Source: a candidate division WOR-3 bacterium
GTDB lineage: Bacteria; Hydrothermota; Tepidihabitantia; SM23-42; JAOAFX01
Direction of reading: 5' to 3'
Assembly (NCBI GenBank): GCA_039802265.1
Contig: JBDRWI010000053.1
Span: 1 to 15,654, forward strand
DNA: 15,654 nt
The position numbers were made by a program. Below are positions 9,001-15,000 of this stretch, piece after piece (position 1 is the stretch's first letter; each line of letters starts with the position of its first letter).

Positions 9001-12000
9001 TTATGGAATTCCCCTCGCCTTTAAGTTGATTTAGAAGTGGCACAGTGCAATCATCAAAGATAATCTCATTGATACCGCCCGCATTCATACCAATGATATT
9101 ATTCTTCCTGTTTCTTTTTATCCCGGTGATTGTATCATCAATAATCAGGGCATTGACCTTGCCTGCAGATTCAACAAATAATATGAACGGTCCACAGGCA
9201 TCGCCATTGAGCAGGATATGATTTCTGCCGGTGATTCTATAGCAACCATTCTCTTCTTTTACGGTCAGTTCATTTGTAGCAAATTCTGCAAACCCGCCAA
9301 TAACCCTTCCGCTGGCGGCATCCGGCAGGTATCTCTTTTTCTGCTCTTCATTACCAAATTTGACAATGGTATGGGAGAATAATATATTGTGGGCAAGAAG
9401 GATGAGTGCGGTGGAAGGGCAGACCCTGCTTATCTCTTCAAGGCCTACCAGTAATGAAACGGTATCAAGGAGACAGCCACCATAGACTTCAGGTATTGTG
9501 GCACCACAGAGGCCCATTGCACCGAGCTGGGTGATAATCTCCTTTGGATATATCCAATTTTTGTCAAATTCATCAACCTTTTCGGCAATAACATCCCTTG
9601 CAAACTTTCTCACCTCACTCTGTAATAACTGAACCTCTTTACTCAATTCCATCTTCACTCCTTTTTGTATCCAATCTCACGGATAATCTCCAGGGCAATC
9701 TGTCCCCGCTGAATCTGGTTTGTGCCTTCATATATCTGGGTAATCTTGGCATCGCGAAGCATCTTTTCTACATTGTATTCTCTTAATAATCCATAGGGAC
9801 CCATAATCTCAATTGCCTTAAGGGTCATCTTCATTGCAATATCAGAAGGGAATAACTTGGCGAATGAGGCCGGCATCGTGGTATTCTTTATACCCCCATC
9901 AATGGCGCGGGCAGCGGCATAAACCAGTGCCCTTGCCGCCTCAATCTCGGTTGCCATATCGGCAATCTGGCGCTGTATGTATTGATTACCAAGGAGATTC
10001 CTGGTCGTAGCAAACCTGAGTACTTCCTCATAGGCTCCCTGTGCTACACCAAGTCCAATTGCACCAACACCAGGACGGGCGCGGTCAAAGTTGCGCATTG
10101 TGTAGATAAATCCCATCCCTTCTCTTCCCATAAGATTTTCCTTCGGAACTTTGCAGTCAGAGAAGACAAGTTCGGTTGTGGTTGAGGTTCTTATTCCCAA
10201 TTTATTTTCGTGTTTGCCAAATTCAAATCCCGGCATTCCTTTCTCAACGATAAATGCTGAGATACCCCGGGGACCCCGGGTTCGATCCGTTGAGGCAAGC
10301 ACAACATAGACATCGGCAATACTACCATTGGAGATGAACTGTTTGACCCCATTTAAGATGTAGTAATCACCCTCTTTACGGGCAGTCGTCTGAATATTTG
10401 CCACATCACTACCGGCCTGTGCCTCGGTTAGACCAAATGCACAGAGCAGCTCACCGCTGGCAATTTTGGGCAGATACCTTCTCTTCTGGTCTTCCGAGGC
10501 AAAATAGATTATTGGTCCTGAACCCAGTGCCCCGACCGCATAGGCGGTGGCAACACCGGCACAGATGCGCGCAACCTCTTCACAGGCGATGCTCATATCC
10601 ATAATCCGGGCACCGGTGCCTCCATATTCCTTTGGGATGAAAATCCGCAATAGCCCTTCCCTTGCCATATCTTCAATTATTGCCCTTGGGAATTCTGCCT
10701 TCTTATCAAGTTCATCACGCACCGGCAGAATCAGGCGCTCCGCTATACTCCGCACCTTTTCTTTCAACTGCCGCTCTTCATCGGTCAAGAAATATTCCAT
10801 ATTCCTCCCTCTATTTTGCCATTTTAATAATTTTCCTTATAAAGTCAAGAGCCTAACGGCTTTTCTGTAATATGTCAATCAAAAATCTTGATGGTAGTTG
10901 TTGCCGGCCTGACCGGTACTTCGGATATAGAAGATATAATCTTTTCTGCGCCCGGGTTACAGCAACATAGCACAACCTCCGCTCCTCTTCCAAATCCTGC
11001 TGGGAGGATAGACTCCGGGTCATCGGAAAGATGTCTTCTGTGAGGTCAACCAAAAAGACCACCGGAAACTCCATCCCTTTGGCACTGTGCACGGTCATAA
11101 GTTTTACGGTATCCTTTGTCCAGTTTGCCAGGTCCATCTCCTGAATTAGTTTCAATTCGCTTAAGAATTTATTAATGGTAATCCCTGAGTCAGAGTAGTT
11201 CCGTGCAAACTCCAGAAATTCATCAATATTCTCCCCCTTCTGCCGTGTAAGACCAACGATTTCACTGATGATGTTATAAGGAGTCAATAGATTTAGATTC
11301 TGGATATGGTGTTCAATAACCTTTTCTGCCTTAACCAAGGCATTCTTTTTGATGCCTAAAATGGCGCATGCCCTTTTTAAAAAATCTTTCTGGTCTTCAT
11401 CCGGGGTATATGCTGAAAGCAACTCCAGATATCCGATAATCGGCTTAAACTCCGCCTTTTCCTGGAATGATACACCGCTGATCAGGGTATAAGGAATGCC
11501 GGACTCTTTTAATCCTTCTTCGTATATCTGGGCAAGATAGTTCATCCGGTATAATATTACAATATCCTGATAGGTAAAATCCAGTTCTAAAAGTTCTTTT
11601 ATCTCCCTTACAATATAGTCAACCTCATCATCGGGTGAGGTCGCGGCATAGACAATTACCTCAGCGGTATCAAGATTGGGTATTGCAGTGGACTCCCGCT
11701 GCATTATGCTGTTTGCCACCTCAAGGATTGACTGGGGAAGTCGGAAACTACGATTTAGATTAAATACCTTGGTCTCGGGAAAGTCCCGGGGGACACGATA
11801 GAGCAATTTTTTATCAGCACCCCGCCAGCCATAGATTGCCTGGTCCTCATCACCGGTAAAAAAGAAGTTATTCCTTACCAAGAGTGAAATAAAAATGTAT
11901 TGTGCCAGATTGATATCCTGGAGTTCGTCAACAAAGAGGTATTCAAAGAGTTCCTGATAGAACTCCCTTAAATCGGGAAATTCCTTCAACAGTTCTGTAG

Positions 12001-15000
12001 CATAGATAATCAGGTCGTCATAATCAAGGATGTTGTTTGCCCTCAGATATGACTGGTATTGCTTGTAAACACTCAAACACTGCTCTTCCCACTGATTCCG
12101 GGGTTTGAATCCTTCCGGGGTAATAGCCCTTGCCTTTAATAACTGAATTGCCTTGATGACCGCATTGAGTCGGTATTTGCCGACCTTGAAATCTAAACGG
12201 GCAAAGAGCTTCTTTGGCTCTTCAACAATGAAGTCTTCGCCTATATCAAGTCTTTCTGCATCCCTTCGGAGAATCCTTAAGGCAAGCGTATGGAATGTGC
12301 CAATCCAGAGTTCATAATTGGGCTGAGTTATAAACTGACTGATCCTCTGCCTTATGTCATTTGCCGCCTTGTTGGTAAAGGTACAGACAAGTAGCCTGGA
12401 TGGAGGGATTCCCCGTTCAATCAACCGGCGCACACCATAGGTCAGGGTTGTCGTCTTACCACAGCCGGCCTGTCCCAGGACCAAAAGTTTACCATCAATT
12501 GATTCTATAATCGCCTCCTGCTCCGGTGAAAGGGTAATCTCCTGCGGCTTCTTTGCGATAATGGCAACCGGTTTTTCAATCTTTATACCCCTGCTCTTCT
12601 TTTTTAAACCTTCAAGTATCGACCCGGTATCGGGTCTTGTCTCGGGTGTCGGGCTCAAACACCTGATGACAATGTCATCAAGATAGTCAGGAACATCACG
12701 GCGCACAAGGCTGGGAATGAGAAGTTTCCCCTTTAAAATTTTTTCTTTCAAGCCGTCCAGACTGTCATCAAGGAATGGCGGAACCCCGGTGAGCAGTTCA
12801 TAAAGAATGACACCCACACTCCAGATATCAGATTTTTCACTGTAAGAGCCAGCCCAGGACTCCGGTGCCATATAGATTGGGGTTCCGGCGGTGGAGGCGG
12901 CAAGAGAACCCGATTTAATGAATCTTGCCAGTCCAAAATCGGTTATCTTCACAACATTATCTTCTGTCAACAAGATATTCTCCGGTTTGAGGTCACGATG
13001 GAGCACACCGCGGTTATGGGCATAACTTATTGCCTCCAGTATCTGATTTAATATCCATGTTGCCTGATTGATAGCAATACCCCCCTTTTTTATTATATCC
13101 CGCAATACATTTCCCTTGATATATTCCATTACCAGAACAAACTTATTGTCGATTATATCAATGTTGTAGAAGCGGACGATATTGGGATGATTCAAGGAGG
13201 CAAGGAGTTTTGCCTCATCCTTGAGCATCACAATATCTTCTTTTCGCATCCGGGAGATCTTTAAGGCAAACTCTGATTCAATTATTGTATCATAAGCCCG
13301 AAATACATCGCCAAACCTACCCCCGCCAAGCCATTCAATAATCTCGTATTTACCGAGTTTTTTTAAAAGCATAACAACAATTTTAAAAAAGACGCATCAG
13401 CAGGCTGATGCAGGCTGGAGAAAAGATACTCCGGGATGGGTGGTCATTCGGGGAATACCGAGATATGAACGGGTCTATCCGCAAACAAAACTGCCTGTCC
13501 AAGGAATTTTGCTTTTTTGAATCTTAAATGTTCCAGATTTTTTTCGGACATCCCAGTCTTTAGCACGGCGGTGATTTTGTCCATAAAGTCCTCTATATCC
13601 GGGCAGGTTCCACGGCACCTTTGATATTCAATCGCATCCAGGGCATAACTCCGCAATAACTTCTTTTCAAACTTCTGATAGATCTCCGGCGCAGCGAATA
13701 TATCACAGCCGAGGATTTGATTACCTGCCACGCCGATAAATCCAACTGTATTATGATTCAGACCGGAAAATCCTTCAAGATAGCGTTCAACCTCATCCGC
13801 GAGGTTTTCGTAGATTTCATGCATTGAGGATGTCCGGGAGCGAGTTCGGGTCACAGTAAGTTTGCGCTCAATCTCCTTCCAGACAGTCTGCTGGGTGTCA
13901 ACTTTCTTATTAACCGCTGAGGCGAGGATGGAACGAATCCGGGGATATGAGCAGTATCCGGTCTTGAATCCACCGATCTCTTCCCAGCGCCTTTCTTCGG
14001 CACAGATTACCGGGATCTGCCGTTGAGAATGCGCCCGGGCAATGATTGAGCGGGCAACGATGCGGTTCTGCAAGGAACCGGTAATCTCTTCACCATCAAT
14101 CATCAATACCGGTAGTCCACCGCCGTTATCAAATATGATCTTATTGACATCCGGGTTTTTCAATTCGGAAAAACTGCCCTTTTTACTCTCAAGCACCTCG
14201 TCAATTGTCGCAAGATTTAAGTTATTATTATCTGAACCATCCTTTATTGGAAAGATGGTCAGATTTCTCAAAAAGACTGGCTCGGCAAGATTAAAATTTA
14301 AATCCGTCATCTTTCCTCCTACGGACTATAGAATGCCCCAAAATGGTATACCACAGACCATTCAGTATACCAGGTCCAGTTCCGGCTATAGGCACGGACC
14401 CGCCAGAAATAGTAGCCATTACGATTTATAGTGAAGTTATAAGAAGAATAGTCCACATCAATCAAATTTTCACCGGTCAGGGCACTTGAATCATCTTTGA
14501 CGATTTCCAGTTGATAATATTCAGCACCATTCACACTACTCCAGGTAAGTAAAACATTATGGGGAAAAGGTGTTCCATACCAGATGGCGGTATCGTTTTT
14601 AGGACTAATGAGTTGGGGCGGTGCGGGTGGTGGATAGAGGGAATCAAACTTTGGTTCATAATCGTGGGGGTTCTTACAACCGCCACCGAGGTTCAAAAAA
14701 AAATAGATTGTGCCTGTTAAAATGCACAAATAAAAGATTTTCTTCTTTTTATTCCCTACCATTCTGCCTCCTCGGATATATCAAATCCCTCTCCCCCTGT
14801 GGAAGAGGGCAAGGGTGAGGGGTAACCAATTTTATCACCCTCACCTTAATCCTCTCCCGTCAAGGGAGAGGATAATCTTATTAAATTTCATAGCATTTTT
14901 ATGCACATAAGTAGCGCGACTACATACCCTTGATTTAATAAGGGGGCTATTAAGCCTTACCCTATTAAAATTATTTTTCTTTTTTCGCGTTACCATAAGT

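Follow-up and report, generated by a model that had tools for sequence, protein, structure and literature searches.

A Ser/Thr kinase–helicase fusion and its ARPP-1 partner in WOR-3 bacteria: a candidate chromosomal DNA-sensing signalling module

We analysed a window of 15,654 nucleotides (the whole of contig positions 1 to 15,654 of JBDRWI010000053.1, assembly GCA_039802265.1) from a candidate division WOR-3 bacterium. The genome-wide survey's note had described here a kinase-helicase fusion next to an ARPP gene, and both genes were recovered: an open reading frame with Pkinase and UvrD domains whose catalytic motifs are intact, and an ARPP-1 gene located 71 bp upstream of it on the same strand. 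The features of the locus are the following:

10853..13372, minus strand: kinase-helicase fusion of 839 aa, Hanks-type Ser/Thr kinase plus SF1A (PcrA/UvrD-type) helicase (Pfam, AF2, Foldseek)
12614..13348, minus strand: kinase domain, aa 9–253 (Pkinase match and 44-row alignment)
12542..12595, minus strand: flexible kinase/helicase linker, aa 260–277 (pLDDT <50; mean column conservation 0.39)
10862..12532, minus strand: helicase, aa 281–837 (motifs and 44-row alignment)
13444..14310, minus strand: ARPP-1 (PF20208/DUF6569) protein of 288 aa (profile match; belongs to the fusion-tracking clade)
13984..14004, minus strand: ARPP motif C103-x-E105-x-x-R108-W109 (invariant, 44/44 rows)
13393..13412, minus strand: hairpin followed by a T-run within the ARPP-kinase gap (palindrome)
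14319..14762, minus strand: lipoprotein-like gene of 147 aa, 8 bp upstream of ARPP (order-level synteny)

The fusion is flanked in the window by ARPP on one side and an acyl-CoA dehydrogenase gene on the other. The palindrome of the gap recurs in the ARPP-kinase gaps of several relatives; it is probably an inserted REP-like element and a putative terminator. Promoter and terminator counts were at chance level, and so was the count of such sites (5 found versus 4.2 expected). The lipoprotein-like gene was matched in 20 of 29 other loci of its own order (short flanks) and in none of the 20 loci taken from other orders; it is a local synteny restricted to the order and stands outside the module core.

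The Pkinase profile (PF00069) matched residues 9–253 of the fusion with 202.7 bits, and this half has all the Hanks-type motifs, namely the G-loop, the catalytic Lys, the alphaC Glu, HRDLKPEN, DFG and APE. K38, E53, D127, N132, D145-F146-G147 and T164 are invariant in 44 of 44 aligned rows, while R126, W14 and S160 are nearly so (43, 42 and 41 rows, respectively). The activation loop carries S156, S160 and T164. Trp14, which is typical of the family and lies just before the G-loop, and Trp173 are conserved and specific to the kinase of this fusion family. Kinase columns were better conserved than those of the helicase core (0.68 versus 0.57–0.61). Assignment to the PknB/Stk1 PASTA kinases was rejected (218.7 bits against a cut-off of 450, kinase part only, the C-terminal part being a helicase), and so was assignment to the MADS (Mad6) and PD-T4-6 kinases (NF047741, 184 against 460 bits), as the matches were confined to the kinase.

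UvrD-helicase and UvrD_C matches cover residues 281–817. We detected all the SF1A motifs (Walker A as GQAGCGKT, Walker B as DELQD, Ia, III, IV, IVa, V and VI), and the residues G300, G305-K306-T307, D482-E483-x-Q485, D508/Q511/Y514, R544, R609, H762/K765/G766/E768 and R807 are invariant in 44 of 44 rows. The AF2 model of the fusion (pLDDT 83.3, pTM 0.56) had PcrA/UvrD as best Foldseek matches, with the 1A/1B/2A/2B fold (E 7e-41, target TM about 0.66–0.71), and showed no fixed packing of the kinase on the helicase. Subdomain 2B is short and lacks the PxRxIG/GIG motif, and the C-terminal domain is missing. In particular, PxRxIG was present in 0 of the 26 fused rows listed versus 17 of 20 single helicases, and the tail beyond motif VI measures only 37–47 aa in the fused helicases, which form a separate clade in the tree (SH 99). 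The 2B surface, used for dimerisation in UvrD, was the least conserved folded region (0.42). The fusion is therefore not a PcrA/UvrD equivalog (411 bits versus 911 for pcrA; no GIG motif, no C-terminal domain, own clade), and the separate PcrA that the survey had reported is indeed encoded elsewhere, as a 641-aa protein on contig C11 that is 31.6% identical to the fusion.

The upstream protein matched the ARPP-1 profile (PF20208) with 204.6 bits against a cut-off of 27, over positions 3–297 of 297. C103, Q81 and Q140 are invariant in 44 of 44 ARPP rows, as expected of ARPP-1, and the conserved set comprises the C-x4-R motif with R83, R126, Q81 and Q140. By inspection, its N-terminus has no signal-peptide-like stretch. 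Its AF2 model (pLDDT 90.9) had no Foldseek match among PDB folds at E<=0.001, the best structural match having a Z of 5.5 and an rmsd of 2.9 across 62 residues, and searches of PDB sequences gave weak PPR matches and no convincing one; such a lack of matches does not prove a new fold. The ARPPs that track the fusion (ARPP-A) form a clade of their own (SH 97), and the CxExxRW motif is also kept in secreted and ARG-fused ARPPs. Since the secreted paralogues keep the same residues, the invariant positions do not point to DNA, and the suggestion that ARPP may handle sugar or abasic lesions comes only from a published analogy with SRAP. ARPP was originally described in ARG-centred conflict systems, and the accessible part of PMC9503650 lists ARPP-1 in ARG/rhodanese-phosphatase, HIRAN, WYL and deacetylase neighbourhoods. 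The kinase-helicase context is absent from the contexts given there, in agreement with the survey's claim of a further conserved ARPP context. Compared with the ARPP-1 proteins of that source, ours has the family membership and the invariant Cys and Gln in common and differs in belonging to a distinct clade tied to the kinase-helicase. An ARG-centred conflict system was rejected for our locus, with no linked ARG or phosphatase genes in the window or among 103 flanking proteins; PF03747 (ARG) was not found in this genome, which is 89% complete.

The fusion was present in 114 of 271 genomes of the phylum (WOR-3), spread over 24 of 43 families and at least two classes. The survey had called it fixed across an order, and 47 of the 48 order genomes do carry it, although that wording understated the range. 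All of the best 120 of 444 homologues had E<=3.9e-247, and 119 of these 120 had both kinase and UvrD Pfam entries. The fusion also occurs in proteins labelled Thermosulfidibacteraceae and bacterium JZ-2024 1. An outside-phylum branch has DDIQD as its Walker B consensus, so that its motor may be dispensable, and a metagenome scan for the branch returned generic kinases only. A natural split form in one genome (G003) was discarded, as the break falls on a run of N.

Across the 271 genomes, fusion and ARPP-A were both present in 109, the fusion alone in 5, ARPP-A alone in 3 and neither in 154, counts that treat related genomes singly, so that kinship inflates the number of events. In 4 of the 8 discordant genomes the missing gene was found as contig-end pieces. 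The survey's count of 36 linked pairs among 48 order genomes has to be corrected: 46 of these genomes have ARPP upstream of the fusion, 41 of them within 250 bp (between matched segments). Outside the order, the two genes were unlinked in 42 of 62 double-positive genomes, and 7 of the 8 adjacent pairs listed have overlapping stop and start codons. Whole families lack the module, which is absent from 154 of 271 genomes and is thus dispensable. Sequence and distribution show a kinase and an SF1A motor, both with intact catalytic motifs, joined by a flexible tether in one chain, and one ARPP clade that is kept or lost with them.

Across 37 order genomes, identity to this genome had a median of 60% for the fusion, 62% for PcrA and 55% for ARPP-A, and the fusion diverges at about the rate of PcrA. 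Housekeeping genes flank the fusion and ARPP loci, and neither 72,556 plasmid records nor 50,697 phage records contained a full-length copy; ARPP alone gave 2 weak plasmid matches and no phage match. Viral contigs gave no match to a pattern that covers close relatives only. These results bear out the proposed vertical retention and disfavour the anti-phage role offered with it. PADLOC returned, as noted before, partial matches of the fusion to GajB, mad6 and PD-T4-6, plus RTasHel, and none for ARPP; on the 103 flanking proteins it gave 3 matches at E<=1e-20, all generic enzymes. Among 20 loci of the fusion and 20 of ARPP, no third partner gene recurs, and no repair gene recurs beside either of the two. 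Replacement of AddAB/RecBCD by the module was rejected (PF12705 in 250 of 271 genomes and in all 47 other genomes of the order; this genome probably lacks it through incompleteness), as was replacement of UvrB repair (UvrB present in 5 of 5 order genomes checked), nor was replacement of PcrA supported.

Complex prediction for fusion residues 1–640 with ARPP scored 0.59, against 0.00 for the best of 3 controls. In a benchmark that applies only roughly here, given our custom alignments, 116 of 157 solved complexes reached this level, against 2 of 215 mismatched pairs, yet only 18 of the 157, and both mismatches, did so with scores of no more than 0.60. At least 76% of contacts agreed between runs, with partner pLDDT of at least 79, and the tool returned no interface. 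The prediction lends weak support to binding of ARPP to the fusion; with the co-occurrence of unlinked genes, it supports the functional link that had been claimed for the pair.

Our preferred reading, held at a little short of an even chance, is that the pair forms a vertically inherited device that signals the state of DNA: a kinase encoded on the chromosome and activated by ssDNA, a functional counterpart of B. subtilis YabT, to which ARPP is bound as a partner. In its favour are the invariant catalytic residues of both domains, the co-occurrence of the partners and their separate clades, the codon overlaps, the PcrA-like divergence, the housekeeping flanks and the weak complex support, along with published precedents. 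The accessible part of PMC6333020 reports DNA-dependent trans-autophosphorylation of YabT, and that of PMC13238157 reports that Rep dimerisation is induced by DNA and that 2B/GIG contacts are autoinhibitory. The helicase would load onto exposed ssDNA (gaps, stalled forks, resected ends) and travel 3' to 5'. With several copies on the same strand, the tethered RD-kinases would come together and could trans-autophosphorylate their activation loops (S156/S160/T164) and then phosphorylate nearby repair or replication proteins, possibly including their own complex. We infer the direction, with the helicase switching the kinase on, and consider it plausible. ARPP would be a partner subunit bound to the fusion, and the probable target of its Cys/Arg/Gln site is a group that bears phosphate or sugar, at a nucleic-acid end or in an adduct; this chemistry is the least certain step. 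Counting against this reading are the lack of a recurrent repair gene beside the pair, the presence of AddAB-like genes and UvrB alongside the module, its absence from whole families, the poor conservation of the 2B surface, the DDIQD Walker B outside the phylum, and the same invariant ARPP residues in secreted paralogues, which are out of reach of chromosomal DNA. A bolder version, possible but doubtful, is a DNA-checkpoint complex in which the SF1A motor carries the kinase along ssDNA and ARPP processes blocked or sugar-modified ends. If true, it would be a self-contained machine that scans, signals and cleans, retained since early WOR-3, and the simplest system for assigning ARPP chemistry.

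A domesticated anti-phage system, where the helicase would sense phage DNA intermediates, the kinase would trigger growth arrest and ARPP would be the effector or remove phage-added ADP-ribose or sugar marks, is unlikely in our judgement. The part-matches to defence kinases and GajB, the first description of ARPP in ARG-centred systems, the ARG-fused ARPPs that exist elsewhere and a PLD-family gene after ARPP in two genomes of one family all fit with it, and kinase-helicase fusions occur in type I Mokosh, according to the accessible part of 10.1101/2022.05.11.491447. Nevertheless, the 3 flank matches are generic, nearly every order genome has the fusion, its divergence is PcrA-like with no full-length copy on plasmids or phages, and no ARG was found in the genome. 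Quite unlikely, too, is the reverse wiring, with ARPP sensing or processing a small ligand or adduct and activating the kinase, which would switch its own helicase on or off by phosphorylation so that the output is a regulated motor. A helicase without a C-terminal domain or the autoinhibitory GIG motif may need other control, Trp14 and Trp173 could make a partner-binding surface on the kinase, the accessible part of PMC4754617 lists PcrA/UvrD as phosphoproteins in other bacteria, and the weak complex support would suit this wiring; the absence of a predicted interface and of fixed kinase-helicase packing argues against it, as does the lack of a ligand pathway (ARG, FHA) in this genome.

We give little probability to a phosphatase role for ARPP, in which it would act on its cognate kinase as a Cys-based phosphoesterase and so reset the signal. 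Its invariant C-x4-R with R83, R126, Q81 and Q140 would suit such a role, the C-x4-R spacing presumably resembling rhodanese-type loops, and a kinase-phosphatase pair would explain co-retention of unlinked genes. PP2C is missing from most module genomes (matches in 3 of 48 order genomes) but shows no anticorrelation with it (19 of 114 genomes that have the module versus 37 of 157 that lack it), so that ARPP standing in for PP2C was rejected; moreover, the predicted ARPP fold has no helix after the Cys, no phosphatase fold was among the listed matches, and secreted paralogues retain the same motif. Similarly improbable is that the fusion is an extra PcrA-like repair helicase whose kinase is a passenger, the link to ARPP being historical and the proteins independent. 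The fusion is indeed the sole PcrA-sized UvrD found besides AddA in about 10 genomes of the class, and shared ancestry alone correlates the distances (Spearman 0.84), but PcrA was also not found in about 10 genomes without the module, the kinase is conserved above the helicase core, and fusion and ARPP are jointly absent and co-retained when unlinked.

The module has the look of a signalling device of the chromosome that senses DNA and has so far gone unstudied, rather than of mobile phage defence, and part-matches to GajB or Mad6 models can wrongly mark such a stable module as defensive. Bacterial kinases known to read the state of DNA directly are few, YabT being the precedent, and the coupling of a kinase to a PcrA-type motor would be a new DNA-sensing design. 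Here ARPP, a family with no assigned activity, has one fixed, soluble partner from hot-spring organisms, so that its chemistry and the sensing design could both be tested with two purified proteins.

In the literature searched we found no description of a kinase-helicase plus ARPP module, and among the papers listed ARPP was named only in PMC9503650. The fusion shares all motor motifs with PcrA/UvrD/Rep (SF1A 3'-5' helicases; 1pjr, 2is1, 1uaa, 9dci), PcrA (1pjr) being its best sequence match (E 6.7e-94) and PcrA/UvrD its best fold matches; it differs in the added N-terminal kinase, the separate clade and its usual coexistence with a true PcrA. Gabija (GajA OLD nuclease plus GajB) is likewise a two-gene unit with a compact SF1A helicase, and PADLOC gave part-matches to GajB, but GajB has no kinase and its chains matched at only about 5e-15; Gabija was rejected, with no adjacent OLD nuclease and no GajA match in the flanks. 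Type I Mokosh similarly fuses a Ser/Thr kinase to a superfamily 1 helicase and has a second gene, MkoA being, in the accessible part of 10.1101/2022.05.11.491447, an Upf1-like COG1112 RNA helicase with the PLD nuclease MkoB as partner; it was rejected as well, since our helicase is SF1A and PLD neighbours turned up in just two genomes, both of one family, and the module further differs in its ARPP partner and housekeeping context. Finally, YabT, as described in the accessible part of PMC6333020, is a functional analogue only: both are Hanks kinases without an extracellular sensor joined to a DNA-binding element, which in YabT is a disordered basic region on a membrane-anchored protein and in the fusion an ATP-driven motor, with no transmembrane segment and with ARPP as partner.

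Two adjacent genes on the reverse strand of the window make up the module:

10853-13372, minus strand: kinase-helicase fusion ORF, 839 aa (ORF reading and domain search)
13444-14310, minus strand: ARPP-1 ORF, 288 aa (PF20208, 204.6 bits)

The genes are separated by 71 bp, and the fusion combines a protein kinase domain (residues 9-253) with UvrD domains (residues 281-817). The window genome (2.3 Mb, 89% complete) contains one further UvrD-family gene, a 641-aa PcrA that is 31.6% identical to the fused helicase, and one other clear Hanks kinase. The genome-wide survey's note had described a kinase-UvrD fusion beside ARPP plus a separate PcrA; the ORFs, the domains and the 641-aa PcrA confirmed this, though the note understated the range. 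Near-identical DNA was present in two hot-spring metagenome assemblies. Each PADLOC match of the fusion covered a single domain, and all NCBIfam scores shown were under cut-off.

The rest of the window holds an MNT-HEPN toxin-antitoxin-like pair (268-1210, minus strand; an HTH and nucleotidyltransferase gene, then a HEPN gene), genes for an AAA_14/DUF4143 ATPase, an SBBP-repeat secreted protein and a Wzc-like tyrosine kinase (1700-8436, minus strand), and after these two acyl-CoA dehydrogenases (8567-10800). A multi-copy intergenic repeat with GC-rich hairpins (14763-15022) matched dozens of window-genome contigs and had high summed depth in two metagenomes. Within the order, palindromic repeats accumulate in the ARPP-kinase gap (window 13373-13443; matching gaps at loci L003, L005, L010, L011, L013, L025, L028 and L186), and the gap of one relative holds an IS200-like transposase ORF (PF01797). 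In most other orders sampled, the two genes abut or overlap.

A single full-length fused ORF was present in 45 of the 48 genomes of the order; one further fusion was split across contig ends, a run of N interrupted another, and a single genome (86% complete) had neither fusion nor ARPP. In 46 of the 48, ARPP lay upstream of the fusion and shared its strand. Across the WOR-3 phylum, we detected the fusion in 114 of 271 genomes (24 of 43 families) and ARPP matches of at least 111 bits to the window protein, a threshold that we chose just above the secreted paralogues, in 112. Both genes occurred in 109 genomes, the fusion alone in 5, ARPP alone in 3 and neither in 154, counts that are descriptive because relatives are not independent. 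The ARPP tree (45 rows) backs the 111-bit split by grouping 24 of these ARPPs on a single branch (SH 97), and profile searches recovered the missing gene as contig-end pieces in four of the eight discordant genomes. Outside the order, the genes were adjacent in 20 of 62 double-positive genomes (18 with ARPP first, 2 reversed, fusion then ARPP) and non-adjacent in 42, with unlinked status read from flanks at 11 fusion and 19 ARPP loci and from contig numbers at the others. Loci L181:1225-5494, L093:4900-6614 and L074 exemplify the variants of order and neighbours; ARPP is followed by a PLD-like gene in family f34 and by a polysaccharide deacetylase in genome G223.

Among the best 120 of 444 matches, named fusion homologues were mostly candidate division WOR-3 (at present Caldifarciminota at NCBI), with one TA06. 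At 50% identity, about 30 representative clusters had the fusion architecture before scores fell to ordinary PcrA, some labelled Thermosulfidibacteraceae or bacterium JZ-2024 1. In a FastTree tree, a branch with SH 99 separated 31 fused helicases from 26 single helicases. Protein P0186 forms a long branch within the ordinary helicases, and an ESM Atlas cluster of 965 aa, commonest in Acidobacteriota, is an apparently independent kinase-UvrD fusion; P0186 and this cluster seem to stem from a separate fusion event. In an outside-phylum branch with Thermosulfidibacteraceae labels (P0150, P0146, P0156 and P0158), the Walker B consensus reads DDIQD, with DDFQD in P0158, a possible loss of the catalytic glutamate.

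In an alignment of 44 fusions spanning the phylum, kinase residues K38, E53, D127, K129, N132, DFG and T164 were invariant, and R126 (43/44), S160 (41/44) and an unusual W14 ahead of the G-loop (42/44) nearly so. This is a Hanks kinase, not of PknB type. Walker A, DExQ and motifs III-VI are retained in the helicase, as are the ssDNA-contact positions, which we take from alignment to PcrA to be F332, H361, W/F516, R517, R609 and H762. Subdomain 2B lacked the PxRxIG (GIG) motif in all 26 fused rows printed (of 31) and had it in 17 of the 20 printed rows (of 26) of single helicases, and 2B is about 50 residues shorter in fusions of the order. The chain ends 37-47 residues past motif VI in 25 of 26 rows (the pattern failed in the remaining one), and thus the fusion has no C-terminal domain. 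The fused helicase differs from PcrA in these two features; it is an SF1A family member and not a PcrA orthologue. The AF2 model (pLDDT 83.3, pTM 0.56) has its best fold matches in PcrA and UvrD and a disordered activation loop and linker (260-277). What sequence and distribution show is a pair of enzymes that look intact, joined by a flexible tether, and a co-inherited partner.

The ARPP model was confident (pLDDT 90.9), and comparison by sequence and fold gave no clear PDB match. G73, Q81, R83, C103, E105, R108, W109, R126, Q140, W144, S162, G190 and Y222 were invariant in the alignment, and the CxExxRW motif is common to fusion-linked, secreted and ADP-ribosylglycohydrolase (ARG)-fused ARPPs. 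The window genome has a second paralogue (L031:8041-9063, on G000:C19; 340 aa) with a signal-peptide-like N-terminus and no evident deacetylase partner in that locus; some relatives have a third, longer secreted-type paralogue.

Complex prediction of ARPP with fusion residues 1-640 gave 0.59 (best of three controls, 0.00), with at least 76% contact agreement between runs and partner pLDDT of at least 79, and returned no interface. Of 157 solved complexes, 116 reached the corresponding support mark, as did 2 of 215 mismatched pairs; only 18 of the solved complexes and both mismatches did so at 0.60 or under, counts only roughly valid for self-made alignments. The prediction weakly supports binding of ARPP to the fusion and adds a little to the co-inheritance, which already made binding likely; that the two proteins function independently seems improbable to us.

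According to the available text of PMC13238157, SF1A monomers move along ssDNA, Rep forms dimers on DNA, and autoinhibition comes from the contacts that 2B/GIG makes with duplex DNA. In the bacterial Hanks kinase YabT, DNA binding can drive trans-autophosphorylation (PMC6333020, in the part available), and its targets are RecA and SsbA (PMC6333020; PMC4754617, likewise in part). By analogy with this behaviour and precedent, we tentatively interpret the fusion as a kinase activated by ssDNA, at somewhat less than an even chance. The fusion would load on exposed ssDNA and cluster its kinases, whose activation loops would be phosphorylated in trans; the active kinase would then modify nearby DNA-metabolism proteins, while the bound ARPP would probably act through its Cys/Arg/Gln site on a phosphate- or sugar-bearing group. 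Against the ssDNA-activated kinase stand the absence of repair genes linked to the module, the poor conservation of 2B, the loss of the module from whole families, and the same motif in secreted ARPP paralogues. Reverse wiring, with the kinase controlling the motor, is a less probable arrangement, and ARPP as cognate phosphatase is less probable still, PP2C not being anticorrelated with the module. The module does not take the place of AddAB-like genes or UvrB. Within the class, PcrA has been lost both from genomes that have the module and from genomes that lack it; in class genomes G140-G214, no PcrA-sized UvrD was found in many that are 90-99% complete, module present or not.

The survey's note had proposed DNA-damage or anti-phage signalling in which ARPP would handle sugar or abasic lesions, a reading that is borne out in part; we favour a chromosomal signalling arm over defence, and domesticated phage defence appears unlikely. 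Of 117 ORFs lying no more than three genes from the module, the flank scan took in 103, from 19 of 20 loci; ORFs that were short and doubtful were set aside, as was one locus nearly identical to another. These 103 were housekeeping genes (e.g. TIM, tRNA synthetases, DnaA/DnaN, pantothenate synthesis). Three of them matched PADLOC entries at E<=1e-20, namely genes for a methyltransferase, a RidA-like protein and a spermidine synthase. Neighbours of unlinked ARPPs (26 of 69 scanned) were likewise unremarkable. Across 37 order genomes, the fusion had a median identity to the window genome of 60%, compared with 62% for PcrA and 55% for ARPP, and none of the plasmid and phage records searched covered 80% of the fusion.

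The available part of PMC9503650 places ARPP in ARG systems and in HIRAN, WYL and deacetylase neighbourhoods, and offers SRAP-like sugar chemistry as a hypothesis; the searchable part of its supplement has no UvrD or WOR-3 entry, and the remainder could bear on novelty. The literature searched, which included few subscription papers, held no description of the fusion or of its pairing with ARPP. The module is real, old and apparently undescribed, made from known parts. The pair is not a member of Gabija (PMC10781630) or type I Mokosh (10.1101/2022.05.11.491447), as far as the available text of each defines them, nor of the ARG-centred ARPP conflict system; we would place it with the DNA-coupled Hanks kinases and the kinase-helicase fusions.
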